Source: Polyangiales bacterium (GTDB lineage Bacteria; Myxococcota_A; Polyangia; Polyangiales; Ga0077539). Taken from it: a stretch of DNA of 64,000 bases. Positions 3,490 to 43,715 of the stretch are shown here, piece by piece. The position numbers were made by a program, and so were the translations under genes. The DNA is taken from contig JBGARZ010000009.1 in assembly GCA_044229975.1 (NCBI GenBank), positions 91,947-155,946 on the forward strand. Direction: 5' to 3'. Under the pieces are notes generated by a model that was given only the letters and a program-made list of their open reading frames with translations, was not told the origin of the DNA and ran no database searches. Position 1 is the stretch's first letter; every line of letters begins with the position of its first letter.

Positions 3490-4482
3490 CTATCGGGTCG
3501 CGGGGCGGAGGGCGGTGGGGACGCCGTAGCGGTGGTCGAGCGCATCGAGCGCGCGGGCCCAGCGGGAGCCGGAGAGCCCGCGGGCGCGGTCGATGCGGAG
3601 CTGCGCCTGGTGCCACGCGACGACGTGACGGAAGGGCGGGCGGGCGACGTGGCGCGCGAGCAGCGAGGCGTGGTGGAGGGCGTCGAAGGCGCGCTGGTCG
3701 GCGCGTGTCCAGGGGAGCTCGAAGGCGTCGCGCCAGCGCGGTGGGAGCAAGCCCGCGGTGACCACGCGCTCGAAGGGCGTGTGGGAGAGCGGCGTGTCGA
3801 GGAGGGCGCGAGCGACGGTGCGCGCGTGGCGGCCGACGTAGAGATCGGGGTCGTCGAGGGCAGCATCGAACCACGCGTCGAAGGCGGCGCGGTCGACGGG
3901 CCAGCGATCGGGACGAACGCCCGACAGCGCGGAGCTGAGGACGAAGTCGTCGTAGTCGCGCTTGGACTCGGCGGAGGTGAGCGGTCGGACGAAGATCTCG
4001 AAGGCGGCGGTGGAGCCGACGCGCACGGTGGCGGCGACCCAACGCAGGAGGTGCTGGTCGTTGGCGCGGTAGGGGCGACCGTGGAGGGGGCTCTCGGGGG
4101 CGTCGATGGTTCCGCGCACGCGGCAGTGGATGTGGTGCAGGCGGCGGGCGGCGGCGAGGGCCTGGGAGGTGGTTCCGAAGATGAACTCGTAGAGGGTGGC
4201 GGAGGTACGGCGCGCGCGGCCGGCGAGGTCTTCGATGAAGTTGCTGTGCTCAGCGACACCCGTCGCGATGGCGGGATGCGCCATCTGGAGGAGCACCGCC
4301 GCGAAGCCACCCGCGAGGAGCGCGGGCTCGCGGACCTTCACCCACGCGAGGCTGCCGGGCCCGAAGACCCCTTCGACCTCGCTGGCACCGTGGGCGCGCA
4401 CGTAGTCCATGCAGTACGCGAAGTCCTCGGCGTCGAGCGCGTCTTCGGCGGAGCGTGGGTCCACGGCAGCGCGAGCGTACAT
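3490..4482 (-). CDS. DUF2236 / MpaB-like (ER-bound oxygenase family) protein
   Basis: 330 aa from the ATG at 4482 (MYARAAVDPRS...). Conserved DUF2236 features are present (FGPGSLAWV, LLAGGFAAVLLQMAHPAIATGV, RLHHIH). The track ORF is extended 5' by frame noise. Confidence 0.7.
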   Translation of the reverse strand: MYARAAVDPRSAEDALDAEDFAYCMDYVRAHGASEVEGVFGPGSLAWVKVREPALLAGGFAAVLLQMAHPAIATGVAEHSNFIEDLAGRARRTSATLYEFIFGTTSQALAAARRLHHIHCRVRGTIDAPESPLHGRPYRANDQHLLRWVAATVRVGSTAAFEIFVRPLTSAESKRDYDDFVLSSALSGVRPDRWPVDRAAFDAWFDAALDDPDLYVGRHARTVARALLDTPLSHTPFERVVTAGLLPPRWRDAFELPWTRADQRAFDALHHASLLARHVARPPFRHVVAWHQAQLRIDRARGLSGSRWARALDALDHRYGVPTALRPATR

Positions 4483-6494: not shown

Positions 6495-7067
6495 ATGCGA
6501 GACGACCCGATGGGAGCCGAAGCAGCAGTGGTCTGGGACACCGATCCGATTGGTCAGGCGCTCGCGGCCGGCGACCCTCGCACCGCCATCGCCCTCTGCG
6601 CGCGCCGACACGGCGCGTCCATCGGGCGCCTGTGCATGGGCTGGCTGGGCTCTCAGACCGAAGCCGAAGAGGCCGTGCAGGAGACCCTCCTCGCGGCCTT
6701 CGACGGCGCGGCCAACTATCGTGCGGAGGGCAGCATCACCGCGTGGCTGTACGGCATCGCGCGGCGGGTGTGCGCCCGTCGCGTCGAGGTGCGCGGCCGA
6801 CGAGAGCGCCAGCTCCGGCTGGTGGGCCCGGAGGTCGACCACGCCGACGGGGCCGACGTGCTGCTCGCCGCCCGACGCCGCGGGGAGCGGGTGCGCGTGG
6901 CGCTGGAGCAGCTCAAGCCGTCGGAGCGCGATGCGGTGGTGCTGCGCTACGAGGGGGAGCTGTCGTTTCGTGAGGTAGGGGAGAGCTGTGGCATCGACGA
7001 GGCCACCGCGCGCAAGCGGGTGAGCCGCGCCCTGGAGAAGCTGCGGTCGACGCTCGTCGACGAGTGA
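6495..7067 (+). CDS. ECF (sigma-70 family, group IV) RNA polymerase sigma factor
   Basis: 190 aa with region 2 (EEAVQETLLAAF...ITAWLYGIARRV) and a region 4 HTH (LKPSERDAVVLRYEGELSFREVGESCGIDEATARKRVSRALEKLR). Directly followed by the anti-sigma gene. Confidence 0.85.
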   Translation: MRDDPMGAEAAVVWDTDPIGQALAAGDPRTAIALCARRHGASIGRLCMGWLGSQTEAEEAVQETLLAAFDGAANYRAEGSITAWLYGIARRVCARRVEVRGRRERQLRLVGPEVDHADGADVLLAARRRGERVRVALEQLKPSERDAVVLRYEGELSFREVGESCGIDEATARKRVSRALEKLRSTLVDE

Positions 7068-7076
7068 GGACATCCA

Positions 7077-10000
7077 ATGATCAACCGATATGACTGCGCG
7101 CGGGTTCAAGAAGAGCTCGCGGCGCTGGCCGATGACGCCATCCCGGAAGAGGCCGCCGCGCACCTGGCCGGGTGCGACGACTGCCGCGACCTGCTCCACG
7201 ACGCGCGCATCGCCGCCCAGACGCTGCGAGGCGGAGCGGGCGCGGACTTCGTCGCGATGGACGGCGACGCGCTCGCCGCGAAGGTGCTCAGTGCCATCGA
7301 CGGGCGGATGTCGAAGGCGACGCCCGTGCACGGGACGCCGATGGCGGTGACCGTCGCGCAGACCTCACCCCCCAGCCCTCTCTCCCTGGCAGGAGAGGGG
7401 GAGCCGAAGGGAGAGGCACCTCTTCCCGTCGCTGTTCCTACGGCCGTTGCCTCTGCCTCTGGCTCCCCCTCTCCTGCCAGGGAGAGGGGGTTGGGGGGTG
7501 AGGTCTCGCCCCCAAAGGCGAGAGGTGAGGTCGCCCGTCGACGCATCGGCGCGTCCATCTGGGGCGCGGGGTTGTTCGCGGCGGCGGCGTCCGTGGCGGT
7601 CGTGGTGGTCGCGATGCGCGGCCCGTCGACGACACCCGCCAACGCGCCCGATGGCTCCTCGCCCGAGACGCCGCGCGGCCCCGTCGGGCCGTGGCACGCG
7701 ACGCTCGGCCGGGCGCTCGGCGCGGGCGTCGAGGTGAAGGCCGCGGGCGCGTCGGACTTCGCCGCGCTGCGTGAGCGCGGGGTCATCGGGCAGGGAGCGA
7801 CGGTACGCACCGACGCCCGCACCCGCGCCCGCATCGACCTCGACGACGGCACCGTGCTCGTCCTCGATCGCGCGACCACGCTGGTGCTCGACCCGAGCGC
7901 GCCACGCCACGCCCGCATCGTCGAGGGAACCCTCGTCGCCGACGTCGCCCACCGCGACGACGCCCCGCCCGCGGTGCTCACCACGGCGCAGGGAGACGTG
8001 CGGGTGCTCGGGACGAAGTTCGCCGTGAGCGCGTCCAACGATCACACCACCGTGCAGGTCACCCGCGGCGTGGTGCGGCTCGGCCAGGCGTCGAGCGACG
8101 GCGTCGAGGTGAAGACCGGCCAGGAGGCCGTGCTCGCCCGCGGTCAGGTGAGCGTGTCGCCGGCCGTCAACCTGGGCGGTCGCGTGGCGTGGTCGGAGCT
8201 CAACGCCCCCGACGACACCACCACCAGCTCCGGCCTCGGTGAGCTGCGCGCGCGCCGCCCCGGCAGCACCGCCGAACGCGATCAGGCCGTGCACCTCGCC
8301 GAGCATCAGGTGCGCGTTCGCATCGTCGGCAACGTGGCGCGCACCGAGATCGAGGAGGTGTTTCGCAACGACACGGGCAGCGAACTCGAAGGGCTCTACC
8401 GCTTTCCGCTGCCGCCCGAGGCGCAGGTGGAAGAGCTCGCCCTCGACGTCGACGGTCGCATGGAACCCGGCGCCTTCGTCGACCGCGACCGCGCGGCGGC
8501 CATCTGGCGCGGGGTCATCCACCACGCGGCGCCCAACACGCCGCCGCCGAGGGAGGAGTACGTCTGGGTGCCTGGTCCGTGGCGTGATCCGGCGCTGCTG
8601 GAGTGGCAGCGGGGTGGGCGCTTCGAGCTGCGGGTGTTTCCCATCCCGGCACGCGGCGCGCGGCGCGTGCGCATCGCGTACACGCAGACCATCGCGCCAT
8701 CGGGCGGCGGACTGCGGCGCTACGTCTACCCGCTGCCCCACGACCCGGGGGGGAGCACCCGCGTCGATCACATGAGCATGGACGTGCAGGTGCTCGGCCA
8801 CAGCGGGACGCAGCCCGCCCGCGTGCTGGGCTACCCCTTCGCGGCCGCCGACACCTCCGCCGCGGCCTCGCGGTGGACCTTCGCGCGCGACAACTTCACC
8901 CCGTCGGGCGACGTGGTGATGGAGTACGCGCTCGGCGACGCGACCGTGCCGGTGACGGCCTGGGGCTACGCCGAGCCGACCAACACCGAAGGGGCGTACG
9001 TGGCCCTCGCGCTGCGACCGCAGCTCCCGCGCTGGGGCGAGGCGAGGCCGCGGGACTACGTCTTCGTGGTCGACGCGAGCCGCTCCATGGTGGGCGAGCG
9101 CTACGCCCGCGCGACCCGTCTGCTCAGCTCCATCGTCTCGGAGATGGACCGCCGCGATCGGCTCACGGTGCTCGCCTGCGACGTTCGGTGCGTGGCGATG
9201 CGGGAGGGGATGGTCCCGGCGAGCGCGGAGGTGTCGCGGCAGGTGAGCGGGTGGTTGCAGGCGCGCGAGCCCGCCGGCGGGAGCGACCTCGGCGCGGCGG
9301 TGCGGGCGGCGGCGAGCGCGACGCGTTCGACCCCGGACGACCGCGACGTGCGCGTGGTGTACCTGGGCGACGGCGCGTCGACGGTGGGCCACCGGCGCCC
9401 GACGACGCTGGCGCTGGAGGTGACGACGGCGCTGCCCGCGCGCAAGGCGACGTTCACCGCGGTGGCGGTAGGAGCAGAAGCGGACACCACGACGCTCGCG
9501 GCGATGGCGCGGGCGGGTGGTGGGGTGGTGGTTCCGTACCTGCCGGGCGAGGCGAGGACGGGGGCGGCGCTCTCGGTGCTCGAAGCGACGTATGGGGCGG
9601 TGCTGCGCGACCCGGAGGTGACGCTGCCGTCGGGGCTGGTGTCCATGGCGCCAGCGCGACCCGACAACCTGCGCGCGGGCTCCGAGGCCGTCATCACGGC
9701 GCGGATGCTCCCCGGCGTGCGCGAGGTCGAGGGCGAGGTGGTGCTCCGCGGAACGGTCGCCGGCGAAGCCTTCGAGGCGCGCTACCCGATCACGGTGCGG
9801 GCGACGGAGGACGCGGGGAATGCGTTTGTTCCGCGGCTGTTTGGCGCGGCGCGCATCGCTGATCTCGAAGCGGGCGGCGAGCCCGGCGCGCGGGCCGAGA
9901 TGGTGGCGCTGTCGCAGCGGTTTCACCTGGCGAGCCGGTACACGTCGCTGCTGGTGCTGGAGAGCCCGGCGATGTTTCGCGCCTTCGGGGTGGAGCGCAC

Positions 10001-11450
10001 GGCGGGCGGCGTGACGTGGACGGGCGAGACCGAGGCGCTCGCGACGGGCGCCACGGCGACCACGGCCGATGCGAGCGGCGAGGAGGAGCAGCGCACGGCC
10101 GCGGAGGACAACGCATCGACCGAGGCGCTCGGCGGCCTGGCGGCGGCGCACGGCCGCGGAGGCGCGGCGAGCGAACGAGCGTCGACGGAGCCGGAGCCCG
10201 ACATGGTCGAAGCGCCCCGTCGGGAGAACAGCGCGGGGTACGGCCATGTCCAGCAGGTGCCGGCGACGACGACGACGATGCCGCGGCCCGCGCCGGTGGT
10301 CGCGGCGGCGCCGGCCGCGCCTGCGGCGATCTCACAGGCCAACAGCGGGATGCTCGACAACGACGACCTCCAGCGGAGAGGTCCGGCGGCGGCGGCGACC
10401 CGGATGCGTCGCGACGTGGCGGTCGATCGACCGTGGGCGGGAGGCGGTCGCTGGATGCGACGGACGTGGGTGCGTCACGCGGCGGTGAGCGCGCCGGTCG
10501 TGTCGGCGGAGTCGCTGCGGACGCGCATCGAGGCGGCGCGGCGCGCGCTCGGGGAGAACCCCAACAGCCGCGATCGTCACCGGGAGTTGTTCCGGTGGCT
10601 GTCGCTGGCGGGCGAGCTCGACGAGGCGGCGCGGGTGGCCGAGGCGTGGATCGCGCGCGACCCGCTGGACGCCGACGCGCTGATGCGGCTGTCGGACGTG
10701 GCGGCGCGGCGGGGCGATCGTCTGCGGGCGATGCGCTGGCTGGGCGGCGTGGCGGACGTTCGGCAGGACGACGCGCTGCTGCTCGACCGGCTGGCGATGA
10801 TGCACGCGCGGGCCGGGGACGCCGAGACGGCGTGCGCGTACCGGGTGGCGTCGGCGGAGTCGCGGAGCAGCGACGCGACGAAGGTGGCCGAGGCGGTGCG
10901 GTGCGAGCGGGCGCTGGGGCGCGAGATGTTCGCGGGGCGGATGCTCGATCTGTTGACGGACGCGGCGCAGCGATCGCGGGCGGAGTCGCTGGCGATGGGC
11001 AGCGGGGCGGACGTGTTCGCGAGCGTGCGCGGCGAGCTGCTGGCGCAGGCGACGTGGGACGTGGGGGTCGACCTCGACGTGGTGTTCATTGATCCGAACG
11101 GGGTGCGCGTGTCGTGGCAGGGCGGCCGCGCGGGGACGACGGTCAACGAGCCGATGGGCAACGGGCGCGAGTCGCTGGCGCTGGGTCGGCTGGCGACGGG
11201 CGACTGGCGGGTGGAGGTGGTGCGCACCGACCGCGAGGTGACGGGCGCGCAGGACGAGGACGACGCGACGCCGCGGACGGTGGTGCGCGGGAGCGTGACG
11301 CTGACGGCGCTGGGCGAGCGGCGGGTGCTGCCGTTTACGCTGACGGGGACGCGCGCACCGGTGGGCCGCGTGGTGGTGACGCGGGAGGAGCAGCTGGTGC
11401 CAGCGGGTCCGCCGCCGCCGGGCGCGCAGTTGGAGATGAGGCGCTGGTAG
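7077..11450 (+). CDS. Giant anti-sigma factor: zf-HC2, TM, FecR, VIT, vWA and TPR-like C-terminal region
   Basis: 1457 aa. N-terminus has the zf-HC2 motif (C..HLAGCDDC). A TM helix (IGASIWGAGLFAAAASVAVVVVAM) follows. Then a FecR domain (GATVRTDARTRARIDLDDGTVLVLDRAT), a VIT domain (VRIVGNVARTEIEEVFRNDTGSELEGLYRFPLP), a vWA domain (DYVFVVDASRSMVG...VVYLGDGASTVG), and helical repeats plus a beta-rich tail. Confidence 0.8.
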   Translation: MINRYDCARVQEELAALADDAIPEEAAAHLAGCDDCRDLLHDARIAAQTLRGGAGADFVAMDGDALAAKVLSAIDGRMSKATPVHGTPMAVTVAQTSPPSPLSLAGEGEPKGEAPLPVAVPTAVASASGSPSPARERGLGGEVSPPKARGEVARRRIGASIWGAGLFAAAASVAVVVVAMRGPSTTPANAPDGSSPETPRGPVGPWHATLGRALGAGVEVKAAGASDFAALRERGVIGQGATVRTDARTRARIDLDDGTVLVLDRATTLVLDPSAPRHARIVEGTLVADVAHRDDAPPAVLTTAQGDVRVLGTKFAVSASNDHTTVQVTRGVVRLGQASSDGVEVKTGQEAVLARGQVSVSPAVNLGGRVAWSELNAPDDTTTSSGLGELRARRPGSTAERDQAVHLAEHQVRVRIVGNVARTEIEEVFRNDTGSELEGLYRFPLPPEAQVEELALDVDGRMEPGAFVDRDRAAAIWRGVIHHAAPNTPPPREEYVWVPGPWRDPALLEWQRGGRFELRVFPIPARGARRVRIAYTQTIAPSGGGLRRYVYPLPHDPGGSTRVDHMSMDVQVLGHSGTQPARVLGYPFAAADTSAAASRWTFARDNFTPSGDVVMEYALGDATVPVTAWGYAEPTNTEGAYVALALRPQLPRWGEARPRDYVFVVDASRSMVGERYARATRLLSSIVSEMDRRDRLTVLACDVRCVAMREGMVPASAEVSRQVSGWLQAREPAGGSDLGAAVRAAASATRSTPDDRDVRVVYLGDGASTVGHRRPTTLALEVTTALPARKATFTAVAVGAEADTTTLAAMARAGGGVVVPYLPGEARTGAALSVLEATYGAVLRDPEVTLPSGLVSMAPARPDNLRAGSEAVITARMLPGVREVEGEVVLRGTVAGEAFEARYPITVRATEDAGNAFVPRLFGAARIADLEAGGEPGARAEMVALSQRFHLASRYTSLLVLESPAMFRAFGVERTAGGVTWTGETEALATGATATTADASGEEEQRTAAEDNASTEALGGLAAAHGRGGAASERASTEPEPDMVEAPRRENSAGYGHVQQVPATTTTMPRPAPVVAAAPAAPAAISQANSGMLDNDDLQRRGPAAAATRMRRDVAVDRPWAGGGRWMRRTWVRHAAVSAPVVSAESLRTRIEAARRALGENPNSRDRHRELFRWLSLAGELDEAARVAEAWIARDPLDADALMRLSDVAARRGDRLRAMRWLGGVADVRQDDALLLDRLAMMHARAGDAETACAYRVASAESRSSDATKVAEAVRCERALGREMFAGRMLDLLTDAAQRSRAESLAMGSGADVFASVRGELLAQATWDVGVDLDVVFIDPNGVRVSWQGGRAGTTVNEPMGNGRESLALGRLATGDWRVEVVRTDREVTGAQDEDDATPRTVVRGSVTLTALGERRVLPFTLTGTRAPVGRVVVTREEQLVPAGPPPPGAQLEMRRW
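7361..7506. repeat. MITE-like element with ~41-bp near-perfect terminal inverted repeats, inserted inside the anti-sigma CDS
   Basis: Left arm gacctcaccccccagccctctctccctggcaggagaggggg (7361-7401). Right arm ccccctctcctgccagggagagggggttggggggtgaggtc (7466-7506) is its reverse complement with about 3 mismatches. The ORF reads through it as a Pro/Ser/Gly/Glu-rich linker. Confidence 0.75.
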
Positions 11451-13227: not shown

Positions 13228-14541
13228 TTACCGAACCCGGATGATCCAATTCACGCTGGCGTTCAGGGGACGACTCTCGCCGCCACCCGCAGCCTGGACT
13301 GACACCGTAACGGGAAGGGGATGACGCGAAACACCCGCGTTACCGTTGTCGTGAAAGTTTCCGCCGGTCGAAAATCCATTTCGCATCTCGCTATTTCCAA
13401 TCGCTGTGCTCGAAAACGGATTTCCTCCCATCACCGCTGACGCCCCATGGTTGTGTGACCCGACCGCGCCAGACTGAACCGTGCCGACCGCGTCACCGCT
13501 CCGTCCTCCCGCTGCCATCGACGTGCGCCCGCCGCGATCTGGGTCACGTCCTGCGTTTAGATCTGCGCCGCGCAGGAAGTAGCCTCGGTAGTCAGGAAGG
13601 TTGAAGGTCAGAGCGTCTGGGGTGCCATGCGCGGTACCGATGGCCGTAAAAAGCCCAGGATAGCCGGTTCGAGAGAGGGGTCGGCCGTCGCAAAGCAACC
13701 AGCCCGAGGGAGGCGTGTCGCCCGCAAACGCAACAACTCCCCCGATCGGTGTCGTGACAGGTGGAGGCGCATCAACCTCCGCCGCCTCTGGGATGATAGT
13801 CACTAGAGCCCCACCCCCGGTCGAAACGACCAACTGCGCAGGGGGGGCAAAGATCCGCCGTCCTGGCGCAGCGCTCGGCGAACTTGCTACGCGTCGGCGA
13901 CACGACATTGACAGAAAGGAGTTGCCGATCATGGTCAGCTGACTCCTGGGTCCGGTAGGTTGATTCCGGCGCGCGTCCCAAAGTTCGCCAGCACACTGGA
14001 ATGCGTCATCGGGAATCACGCGAACGTCCTGAAGGCCGATGCCCGAAGTACCCGGGCCGTTATATGACAGAGCAAGCGTGACCAGATCCGATTCGCTCCC
14101 TGAAATGGTGCGCCTGAAGTGTAGTCCTTGTCGCTCCGCCTCGACGCAAGCTCGATAAGCTTGCATCGCATCAGGCGAGATGGTTTGGGTGAGCAGATCC
14201 TGCTCTTGCGCGGACATACTACGAGTGTCCGAGTTGGTGCACAGCGATCGCGCCAATGTCTCCAACTGAGCATACGACATACGAGCATCGACTCCGAAAA
14301 ACGGAGCGTCGACCATCACGCTTGCAGCGACGTTGGTTTGCGATAGTGACTGGTACGTCGAGCACATCGACTGCACCGCGGAGGAAGCTTGCTGCGCCGT
14401 ACTGCGGGTTCGGACGGAGTTGTACACCCCGAGCCGGAGTTGATCGACGCACGATGTATTGAGATTGTTTTGCGCACAGACCTCCACTGAGGAGATGAAT
14501 AGTGCCAGAGCTGTTACTATGGCGATTCCGAACTTGTTCAT
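13228..14541 (-). CDS. Secreted protein with C-terminal phage tail-collar domain (MdpB / tail-fibre-like)
   Basis: 437 aa. Signal peptide MNKFGIAIVTALALFISSVEVCAQ. C-terminus has the tail-collar motif (FAGDTPPSGWLLCDGRPLSRTGYPGLFTAIGTAHGTPDALTFNLPDYRGYFLRGADL...GSHNHG). GC is markedly lower than the flanks (many AT-rich stretches between 13.2 and 14.9 kb). Confidence 0.7.
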   Translation of the reverse strand: MNKFGIAIVTALALFISSVEVCAQNNLNTSCVDQLRLGVYNSVRTRSTAQQASSAVQSMCSTYQSLSQTNVAASVMVDAPFFGVDARMSYAQLETLARSLCTNSDTRSMSAQEQDLLTQTISPDAMQAYRACVEAERQGLHFRRTISGSESDLVTLALSYNGPGTSGIGLQDVRVIPDDAFQCAGELWDARRNQPTGPRSQLTMIGNSFLSMSCRRRVASSPSAAPGRRIFAPPAQLVVSTGGGALVTIIPEAAEVDAPPPVTTPIGGVVAFAGDTPPSGWLLCDGRPLSRTGYPGLFTAIGTAHGTPDALTFNLPDYRGYFLRGADLNAGRDPDRGGRTSMAAGGRSGDAVGTVQSGAVGSHNHGASAVMGGNPFSSTAIGNSEMRNGFSTGGNFHDNGNAGVSRHPLPVTVSVQAAGGGESRPLNASVNWIIRVR

Positions 14542-15010
14542 TCGCTACTCCGAAGATTGAGTGTTGCACTGGGAGCTTTGATCAGAGACCGACGCTAGTT
14601 GGTCGTCGCACAGGAGTCTTCAGCCGAGCGCACGGAATGTGATGTTGTGTGCACCGAAGTCGAGCACCATGCCTTTGGTATGGACTCAGCAGCCACCCGT
14701 AGCTCGGTGGTAGTCCGCTACGGGCTTCGCCGTCAAGTCCTCAAGTGAGCACGCGACCATCGCTCCTGACAAGCGAAAGTACCAAGTGCGTCTGAGCTTC
14801 TGGCGATACGTCGCAGCCGCAATGCTTCGCCCCCGCCACGCGCCACCTTCCCCCTACCTACGCGACAGCGACGATCGGCTCTTCGCCAACGTAACCCTAC
14901 CCATGTGCCCGCTTGGCGACGGCCGCTCCACGACACAATGATCGCTCTACCATTGGGTCTGGCGAGGCCGCGAAAACAGGTTCAGCTTTTCGCCTCTGCC
15001 CCAGCACAAC

Positions 15011-21416: not shown

Positions 21417-21460
21417 CAGAGAGCCCTCTCATTCAAGCGGGCGGTGATGTTGTCCGCCCG

Positions 21461-21707
21461 GACGCCGGAGTTCGCGTGCCCCCATGAGGCGGGGTGCAGT
21501 CGCTCACTCCGGGCTATTTCAGGTCGTCACCCCGCGACGCGGGGTTGCAGAGAATCCGCTCGTCTTCACGCCTGTGATGGGTTTGTTGAGTGAGTGGCCG
21601 CGGACACGACCCTGACCCTGCAACCCCGCGTCGCGGGGTGACGACCTGAAATAGCCCGGAGTGAGCGACTGCACCCCGCCTCATGGGGGCACGCGAACTC
21701 CGGCGTC
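21461..21707. repeat. 247-bp near-perfect palindrome (about 90-bp arms, about 67-bp loop); family copy 1
   Basis: Arms 21461-21550 and 21618-21707 are exact reverse complements (gacgccggagttcgcgtgcccccatgaggcggggtgcagtcgctcactccgggctatttcaggtcgtcaccccgcgacgcggggttgcag). Lies between the convergent genes ending at 21416 (+) and 21736 (-). Confidence 0.9.
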
Positions 21708-21735
21708 CACCGGACGAGATCACCAACCACTCAAA

Positions 21736-39892: not shown

Positions 39893-39988
39893 GGCCGCAA
39901 GGGCGCCAGGGTCGCAAGGGAGGAACGAACAGCGCGACTCATCAACACCTCATCTCATCTTGTCCTTGCGACCCTGGCGTCCTTGCGG
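39893..39988. repeat. Hairpin of the same motif family as 2511-2634 (arms ccgcaagggcgccagggtcgcaagg / ccttgcgaccctggcgtccttgcgg, about 38-nt AT-rich loop)
   Basis: About 25-bp arms, 24/25 complementary. Shares the CGCAAGGGCGC[AC]AGGGTCGCAAGG core with 2511-2538. Confidence 0.7.
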
Positions 39989-39991
39989 CTT

Positions 39992-43439: not shown

Positions 43440-43450
43440 CCCCGCCCGAG

Positions 43451-43710
43451 GCCGCTGCGCCCGCGGGCCGGAGTTCGCGTGACCCCATTGCGGGTGCGTG
43501 CAGTCGCTCACGCCGGGCTATTTCACGGGGTCACCTCGCTGCGCGAGGTTGCAGGAACTCTCGATCGGCGATGGACGAGGCGACGGGTTGCTCGTTGAGA
43601 CCAGAGCTGCAACCTCGCGCAGCGAGGTGACCCCGTGAAACAGCCCGGCGTGAGCGACTGCACGCACCCGCAATGGGGTCACGCGAACTCCGGCCCGCGG
43701 GCGCAGCGGC
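43451..43710. repeat. 260-bp near-perfect palindrome; family copy 2 (same family as 21461-21707)
   Basis: Arms share the blocks ccggagttcgcgtg, tgcagtcgctcac and ccgggctatttca with copy 1. The inner stem differs (cacctcgctgcgcgaggttgcag versus caccccgcgacgcggggttgcag), but each copy remains self-complementary. Lies between the convergent genes ending at 43439 (+) and 43716 (-). Confidence 0.9.
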
Positions 43711-43715
43711 CCTCC

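Follow-up and report, generated by a model that had tools for sequence, protein, structure and literature searches.

The window analysed here is a 64-kb stretch (64,000 nt) of a Polyangiales genome, and at 7360-7506 it contains a palindromic element of 147 nt that is translated as part of an anti-sigma factor. The host gene (7077-11450, + strand) encodes a protein of 1457 aa with a zf-HC2-like N-terminus, a membrane helix, FecR, VIT and VWA domains and a C-terminal TPR-like region. The zf-HC2 match, at residues 7-37, is sub-threshold (21.0 bits against a cut-off of 22.2), and the hydrophobic helix follows the motif ARRR; the element sits in the linker between these two parts. The gene of the cognate extracytoplasmic function (ECF) sigma factor of the sigma-70 family (6510-7067, + strand) lies upstream, with 9 nt between its end and the start codon of the anti-sigma gene; therefore, the anti-sigma context is right. 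The gene order CxxCxxCC / ECF sigma / anti-sigma is kept at all orthologous loci, and the linkers of the orthologues range from about 35 to 110 residues. An earlier note on this DNA had described an open, in-frame insertion in the 1457-aa protein, after the zf-HC2-like domain and before the membrane helix, and this placement is correct. The insertion is an inverted doublet, in which each arm is one unit of the BoxC / PIT / TMECO family of intrastrand triplex motifs (TMs) rich in G/C.

The two inverted-repeat arms (7360-7418 and 7448-7506) are 59 nt each, are complementary at 54 of 59 positions and are separated by a spacer of 29 nt (7419-7447, + strand). A repeat with arms of 41 bp, three mismatches and a total size of ~146 bp had been claimed previously; the repeat itself stands, and its dimensions are replaced by those given here. 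Folded as RNA, 7360-7506 forms a single long stem of -143 kcal/mol, compared with -78.5 +/- 4.5 for dinucleotide shuffles (z = -14.3, with 0 of 200 shuffles as stable), and with DNA parameters the fold has -72 kcal/mol (z = -12), with values of about -70 kcal/mol on both strands. Each arm also forms a small hairpin of its own. In the left arm the + strand carries the C-rich strand and encodes TSPPSPLSLAGEGEPKGEA in the gene frame. It consists of CCTCACCCCC (7363-7372), which is the complement of the third-strand block, loop-2 (CAG, 7373-7375), the block CCCTCTCTCC with one mismatch (7376-7385), loop-1 (CTGGCA, 7386-7391), the block GGAGAGGGGG (7392-7401) and an extended arm (7402-7418). In the right arm the + strand carries the G-rich strand and encodes ASASGSPSPARERGLGGEV, and the C block CCCCCTCTCC (7465-7474), loop-1 (TGCCAG, 7475-7480), the G block GGAGAGGGGG (7481-7490), loop-2 (TTG, 7491-7493) and the third-strand block GGGGGTGAGG (7494-7503) follow one another; all of the right-arm triads (10/10) are of the allowed types G.G-C, T.A-T and A.A-T. 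The spacer codes for a Pro/Ala/Val-rich linker, and among the orthologues it varies from 29 to 95 nt with sequences that cannot be aligned between lineages.

The 147-nt segment corresponds to exactly 49 codons in the frame of the open reading frame (ORF) at 7077-11450 and encodes TSPPSPLSLAGEGEPKGEAPLPVAVPTAVASASGSPSPARERGLGGEV. The view that the element adds Pro/Ser/Gly/Glu-rich linker sequence is thereby borne out, with about 49 residues added to a cytoplasmic linker that varies and is presumably disordered. The statement that the antisense frame yields near-identical peptides also holds. The arms are unusually well suited to being read as coding sequence: the C-rich strand has no stop codon in any frame, and the G-rich strand has one in a single frame, through the TGA in GGGTGAGG. 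An assembly artefact was considered and ruled out: the protein encoded by an independent Logan assembly (L001) is 100% identical, and the element is found at this site in six further assemblies, also independent. Within the window, the 22-23-nt core of the arms is confined to the two arms and has no chance matches in shuffled windows, and no further copy was found in the 64 kb at <=3 mismatches or with a generic TM finder. An Rfam search of the element returned sub-threshold matches to generic hairpins (miRNA precursors) alone and no known RNA family.

To assign the element to its family, we compared the arms with the published motif. A TM unit is composed of a pyrimidine block, a loop of 3-6 nt, the complementary purine block, a loop of 3 nt and a mirror purine block that is able to be the third strand (PMC4666352). 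The G/C-rich intrastrand triplex motif described by Holder et al. (NAR 2015) corresponds to the earlier BoxC of E. coli and to the PIT elements of Hoyne and Maher (2000) (PMC4666352). We applied a TM finder (9-nt blocks, at most one hairpin mismatch and at most one triad mismatch) to the window and to 20 shuffled windows, and it recovered exactly the two arms in the former and nothing in the latter. The right-arm unit (7466-7503, + strand) has no hairpin and no triad mismatch, and the left-arm unit (7363-7400, - strand) has one of each; the arms of the orthologues L003, L004 and L005 likewise satisfy the TM test. Given blocks of 10 nt, the loops measure 6 nt (loop-1) and 3 nt (loop-2), which is within the published rule of 3-6 nt and 3 nt, and the 8-nt cores CCCTCTCC, GGAGAGGG and GGGTGAGG are identical to TMECO sequences in Table 1 of the same study (PMC4666352). 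The E. coli family comprises 23 copies, always intergenic in strain K-12, with five inverted pairs; the loops are less conserved than the stems, and the loci are unusually variable between strains (PMC4666352). The element therefore resembles BoxC/PIT/TMECO in its three-block design, in the loop of 3-6 nt followed by one of 3 nt, in the mirror purine block with GTGAG and in the identical 8-nt cores, as well as in the inverted pairing, in loops that vary more than stems, in hypervariable loci among relatives and in that no associated mobile-element genes have been found. It differs in its blocks of 10 nt compared with 9 and in their shifted register. Its arms are near-perfect mirrors including the loops, whereas the E. 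coli pairs are always of type A plus type B, and it resides in a high-GC Myxococcota-like host, whereas TMECO is described from proteobacteria and G/C-rich TMs from cyanobacteria (PMC4666352). Above all, this copy is translated inside a coding sequence, unlike TMECO, which has been reported as always intergenic. In L005 both arms (8772-8809 and 8890-8927) have CCCCTCGCC instead of CCCCTCTCC. This change places a mismatch inside the hairpin, opposite the first A of GAGAG, and the same mismatch defines the commonest E. coli 'mm' type of TMECO.

The family extends far beyond this clade. A hairpin-only scan for CCCCTCTCC-N6-GGAGAGGGGGAG, with one genome per species, gave at least 120 loci in Chloroflexota, Armatimonadota, Desulfobacterota, Bacteroidota, Cyanobacteria, the candidate phyla radiation (CPR), Myxococcota and others. 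Nearly all of the matches have ACCTCACCCCCC plus 3 nt directly upstream, as in the window, although this flank was not specified in the scan; many run on into a second, inverted unit ending in GGGGGTGAGGT, and contigs with multiple copies are present. At >120 loci, the element agrees with the family over about 40 nt in all three of its blocks, in the lengths of both loops and in the terminal ACCTCACCCC. Among the orthologous loci, L008 has a second doublet (14440-14555) that is intergenic, lies just downstream of the same gene and has identical termini (AGACCTCACCCCC ... GGGGGTGAGGTCT). The spacer of this doublet is AT-rich, and the doublet is nested in a larger palindrome (14395-14610). Tandem repeats of about 60 nt (cgcaacgcccatcgttgtagccgcagt...) lie upstream of it in L008 (14180-14380) and at the same place in L005 (12800-13130), where there is an N-gap. 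A metagenome scan for more alleles gave two loci only, the new allele L148 of the anti-sigma gene and an unrelated copy, L147. The latter (soil metagenome contig Ga0247825_10014875, about 3700-3790) is a single TM unit that fills an intergenic gap of roughly 70 nt and shares its extended arm, GAGCCGAAGG, with the anti-sigma locus. It is directly followed by GGAGGTG and the GTG start of an epimerase-like gene (ILITGGLGFIG), so that it may overlap the ribosome-binding region. An Anaerolineae contig (L032, JAGPFT010000377.1) from a metagenome-assembled genome (MAG) has five TM units in tandem at 1471-2393 with a period of about 209 nt, and a sixth that is inverted; the same MAG is the source of many other matches, so that some genomes can reach very high copy numbers. 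Lastly, the hairpin core CCCCTCTCC-N6-GGAGAGGGGGAG is found on 17 viral contigs of IMG/VR (L129-L145).

In-frame copies are not limited to the anti-sigma gene. The 120 cross-phylum loci contain 142 units, 38 of which are flanked on either side by at least 60 open codons. We checked eight of these with Pfam; all eight lie in genuine genes, mostly between Pfam domains, and at least eight in-gene copies are thus present in other phyla. In a polyketide synthase of Desulfamplus (L025), the unit occupies aa 1478-1492 between the DH and methyltransferase domains; in an AddA-like helicase-nuclease of Falkowbacteria (L070), it lies between UvrD_C and the PD-(D/E)XK nuclease domain; and in TilS of Dehalococcoidia (L010), it lies between the PP-loop and TilS_C domains, where about 40 extra residues are found. 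The UvrA of Ferruginibacter (L066) carries its unit at aa 278-292, just after UvrA_inter, and compared with solved UvrA structures it has about 53 extra residues exactly at the units. The remaining copies are in a PurL-like protein of Fimbriimonadales (L062, aa 610-624), a CoA-enzyme activase (L111, aa 1009-1023), a type IIG restriction-modification enzyme (L080, aa 328-342) and a PMT_2 glycosyltransferase (L102, aa 110-124). Most of the in-gene units encode the window's two peptides, the C-rich strand giving TSPPxPLSxxGEGE and the G-rich strand SPSPxxERGxGGEV; the exceptions are L070, with another reading frame, and L066 and L010, whose peptides start at LPLS. A similar case is that of the Rickettsia palindromic elements (RPEs; Ogata et al. 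2000), which are in-frame palindromic repeats in unrelated genes (reviewed in PMC10969869). RPEs are likewise palindromes of about 100-150 bp that also occur in intergenic positions, and their peptides are compatible with the function of the protein. The likeness is one of behaviour only, in that unrelated host genes carry units in-frame and the host protein is retained. By composition and architecture the two are set apart: RPEs are AT-rich, lack the triplex-motif architecture and are confined to Rickettsia and its relatives, whereas the TM family spans many phyla, and a relationship in sequence is not expected.

To follow the history of the element, we compared the anti-sigma locus between orthologues. 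Seven of the ten orthologous alleles carry the element at the same site and in the same frame. The arms match at 54/59 positions in the window allele, 49/49 in L003, 48/51 in L004 and 44/48 in L005; L148 has perfect arms of 44 nt, L146 is the closest relative (its gene has 94% nucleotide identity to the window gene), and L002 has a decaying copy with a match of 31/36. Orthologues without the element, which the earlier note had proposed to look for, do exist: L006, L007 and L008 have no palindrome, and P0009 (59% identity) and all more distant homologues also lack the element. In a tree of 4-fold sites, L003 and L007 pair at 0.11 with L006 at 0.22, L005 and L008 pair at 0.18, L004 stands at about 0.28, and the window and L002 are about 0.33 from all others. 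Presence of the element extends across the deepest splits of the set but is at odds with the 4-fold tree near the tips, and some lineages have lost the element or had it replaced. Because these splits correspond to a 4-fold divergence of about 0.33, the element is ancient at this locus and not a one-off insertion. The earlier idea of a small mobile palindrome tolerated by the protein is thus right as far as a dispersed palindromic family within a linker is concerned, and it fails as a simple insertion, given the age, the conflict with the tree and the concerted arms.

The conflict near the tips is localized. To the left as far as GCGGCGACCTC, and to the right from GGTCGCCCG onwards, L003 and L007 share about 97% identity; they are unrelated in between, where the linker of L007 is common to L006 (about 90% identity). 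In sliding windows, the tree is reversed only in the 200-nt linker window, where d(L003,L007) is 0.33 and d(L006,L007) is 0.10; outside this window, d(L003,L007) is 0.005-0.06. Therefore, a patch no longer than about 250 nt, with the ends of the palindrome as its limits, has its own history. Either the element was regained by L003 or the patch was moved by recombination. We considered whether GAGCCGAAGG is specific to the locus, which would point to regain in L003 by allelic recombination, and rejected this, since L147 has the same extension elsewhere; de novo re-insertion in L003 is therefore a possible route as well. In its structure, too, the locus is unstable, in agreement with the TM-associated hypervariability reported in PMC4666352. 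The terminal 9-mer of the right arm, GGTGAGGTC, occurs twice in direct orientation in the window (7497-7505 and 7524-7532, + strand, 27 nt apart), and this repeat is a slippage-type duplication of the right terminus. In the window allele, L146 and L002, 27-33 additional nt separate the arm from GTCGCCCG; in L003, L004 and L005 the arm runs directly into GTCGCCCG. In L146 the left terminus has undergone a 30-nt tandem triplication (GGAGACCTCACCC..., about 10181-10270), which adds ETSPFGDLPT and ETSPSAALST to the protein. A close-orthologue fragment on a 785-nt ENA contig (P0121) ends within the left arm (...ETSPPGPLSLIHI), which suggests that short-read assemblies break at the palindrome; presence and absence calls in fragmented MAGs thus call for caution.

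The position classes of the element show distinct differences in their conservation. In four intact, well-separated alleles, the triplex blocks differ by 4.8% (18/372) between genomes and by 1.6% between the arms of one genome, and the loops differ by 38% and 11%, respectively. For reference, the 4-fold sites of the same gene differ by 28-36% in the same pairs of genomes. By this internal yardstick, the blocks are about six-fold more conserved, and the loops change at the neutral rate, with the two arms in concert. When the six intact alleles are compared with their true left/right pairing, there are 10 differences between arms, compared with a mean of 27.3 for permuted pairings, and 2 of 720 permutations are as low. 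The mirrored changes represent at least five independent lineage events: loop-1 has GCA in one subclade and AAT in another, CTGTCG is found in both arms of L146 where both window arms have CTGGCA, and TACG, GGCGAG and CTGGCG are found in both arms of L003, L005 and L002, respectively. The divergence is accordingly palindromic, except in the decaying L002, and this is the opposite of the non-palindromic divergence that the earlier note had named as an argument against its proposal. The G+C content at third codon positions (GC3) is 0.66 inside the element and 0.92 in the rest of the gene. Codon usage is unadapted, and TCT, TCA, CCT, GGA, CTT and TTG, which are otherwise nearly unused, are kept within the element. 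The two arms encode different peptides, and their DNA conservation is symmetric. Low GC3, rare codons and symmetric conservation of the arms together place the constraint on the nucleic acid and not on the protein, and the contrast between blocks and loops is direct comparative evidence of action on the DNA or RNA sequence itself.

We consider that the element is probably a tolerated passenger, a triplex-motif repeat that is kept palindromic by hairpin-templated correction. The doublet would have come into the linker-coding part of the anti-sigma gene once, in an ancestor of this Polyangiales-like clade, and it would have been tolerated because its length is a multiple of three, two of the three frames on either strand run through the arms without a stop and the linker accepts almost any flexible sequence. 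During replication or repair, the palindrome may be extruded or folded back so that one arm templates the other. Switching of the template at quasi-palindromes copies a change in one arm to the other, and multi-base changes can be copied in one step. Such mutagenesis, known as the Ripley model, is an established mechanism and has reportedly been studied in E. coli by Lovett and others. This process predicts exactly the arm-matched pattern seen here and may account for the loop changes found in both arms; unlike BoxC, it is a mutational mechanism and not an element family, and it leaves the constancy of the blocks between lineages unexplained. The same structure would also cause the instability, that is, the terminal duplications, the triplication, the spacer turnover, the decay in L002 and the replacement of the whole patch in some lineages, while a constraint at the level of the nucleic acid would hold the three blocks nearly invariant. 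The contribution to the protein is most likely linker length only.

Several points weigh against this reading. The published TMECO pattern, CCCTCNCCC N3-6 GGGNGAGGG N3 GGGNGAGGG, is not matched, as the blocks CCCCCTCTCC, GGAGAGGGGG and GGGGGTGAGG are in a shifted register (C5TCTC2 / G2AGAG5 / G5TGAG2 in the element compared with C3TCNC3 in TMECO); therefore, we place the element in the G/C-rich TM class as a sister variant and do not count it as strict TMECO. The TMECO triplex has been seen in vitro on single strands only and was undetected in vivo in E. coli (PMC4666352). Within the clade, about 120 kb of related loci yielded a single further copy, and none was found elsewhere in the window. 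Template switching is deduced from the mirrored changes, and selection for an mRNA or DNA hairpin predicts the same changes. Finally, unbiased conversion between arms does not slow substitution, and the near-invariant blocks therefore need selection, biased repair, a sequence-specific activity or refreshment from other copies.

Selection for the hairpin at the mRNA level is one alternative, which the geometry makes plausible, with the 59-bp stem acting as an RNase III target or as a ribosome roadblock that lowers the anti-sigma factor relative to the sigma factor. It would fit the RNA fold (z = -14), the 9-nt distance between the two genes, which are presumably on one transcript, and the palindromy kept with mirrored substitutions over long divergence, and in the window allele all of the transition mismatches between the arms (3/3) are G.U wobbles on the sense strand. 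However, the arm mismatches across all alleles comprise six wobbles, three non-wobble transitions and 15 transversions, without a G.U preference on the mRNA strand, and thus they give no positive sign that the selected molecule is RNA. Three orthologues manage without the hairpin and the L002 copy is decaying. Conservation is strongest in the triplex blocks; among these is the third-strand block, whose sequence a simple stem need not keep. Single units, which are unable to form the long stem, are also found in genes elsewhere, and PIT elements have shown no promoter or terminator activity in E. coli (PMC4666352). A functional mRNA hairpin is therefore unlikely. Adaptation of the protein, with TSPPxPLSxxGEGE ... 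SPSPxxERGxGGEV selected as a functional linker or interaction motif, would explain why the peptide motifs are conserved in seven alleles, but it is very improbable: different peptides are encoded by arms of symmetric DNA conservation, third positions and rare codons are kept, three orthologues do without the element, and the same DNA is conserved between genes as well as in unrelated proteins, where both orientations and other frames occur. A local accident, in which an inverted duplication of the linker resembles the family by chance, has in its favour that GC-rich low-complexity linkers can generate repeats; with zero expected chance matches of the 22-23-nt arm core in the window and a family match over about 40 nt at >120 loci, we regard it as extremely improbable.

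The earlier note had called the element MITE-like, and a classical miniature inverted-repeat transposable element (MITE) or a REPIN, moved in trans by a DDE enzyme or by a RAYT/IS200-IS605-type Y1 enzyme through independent and possibly repeated insertions, deserves the same comparison. The terminal inverted repeats, the size of 147 nt (<300 bp) and the dispersal of the family suit this explanation, as do the boundaries of the L003/L007 difference exactly at the element ends, the occurrence of GAGCCGAAGG at the unrelated site L147, the foreign-looking AT-rich spacer of the intergenic L008 copy and the hairpin core on 17 viral contigs. REPINs also consist of two inverted short palindromic units and a spacer that together form one long hairpin, and they are dispersed and non-coding by origin. 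In contrast, REPs have no third, mirror block, and REP/RAYT systems are lineage-specific, whereas the TM blocks are near-identical across phyla. A consistent target-site duplication was not found at the four copies compared: CGC is present at both ends in the window only, and L146, L003 and the intergenic L008 copy have no direct repeat and inverted flanks. The spacers at the anti-sigma locus are in-frame, Pro/Ala-rich and host-like, as evolution in situ predicts. Holder et al. did not find a link to mobile elements for the E. coli TMs (PMC4666352). An all-against-all BLAST of 2411 ORFs from the 120 loci, each of <=8 kb, gave no recurrent transposase, Y1 or RAYT-like gene; the families that do recur near the copies are histidine kinases, ABC transporters, TPR proteins and, in related genomes, DUF1800. 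A RAYT gene, single in each genome, would usually lie outside such loci. With arms that are BoxC/PIT/TMECO units, a family for which no transposase is known and none recurring near the 120 copies, the MITE label is not supported, and movement by such an enzyme is quite unlikely.

The window contains other hairpins. Two near-perfect ones of about 250 nt (21460-21708 and 43450-43711) belong to one family, have arms of 91 nt (100% complementary) and 105 nt (99%) and have CCGGAGTTCGCGTG..CCCCAT..GTGCAGTCGCTCAC.CCGGGCTATTTCA in common; they look like a separate MITE-like family. A third hairpin family (2512-2636 and 39894-39989) has arms with GGCCGCAAGGGCGC[AC]AGGGTCGCAAGG and AT-richer spacers, and its first copy is followed at 2636-2680 by three copies of a 17-nt tandem repeat, cgtcgtctctccgcggc.

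Knowledge of the BoxC/PIT/TM repeats goes back to the 1990s; they are abundant in many bacteria, without an established function or spreading mechanism, and they have been described as strictly intergenic. In the openly searchable literature, which includes few subscription papers, no later work on TMECO/BoxC and no account of in-frame copies was found apart from the 2015 study of Holder et al. and a stem-loop survey of 2008. The repeat family itself is already known; as far as the searchable literature shows, what is new is a translated and long-lived copy, the constraint on the nucleic acid together with the concerted arms, and the recurrence of in-frame copies across phyla. These copies suggest a general, RPE-like route by which repeats create protein linker sequence. 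In practical terms, the repeats break assemblies, and their open antisense frames can add spurious ORF calls in high-GC genomes. It is possible, if short of probable, that BoxC/TM elements are cross-phylum, coding-competent repeats that come to lie repeatedly in-frame in interdomain linkers of genuine proteins, some even essential (among them UvrA, TilS, PurL, polyketide synthases and anti-sigma factors), with their blocks held by a sequence-specific process at the level of the nucleic acid, such as a binding, repair or copying activity. If this is true, an orphan repeat of 30 years' standing would become tractable, and the intact, decaying and replaced alleles of the anti-sigma locus would provide a natural series.

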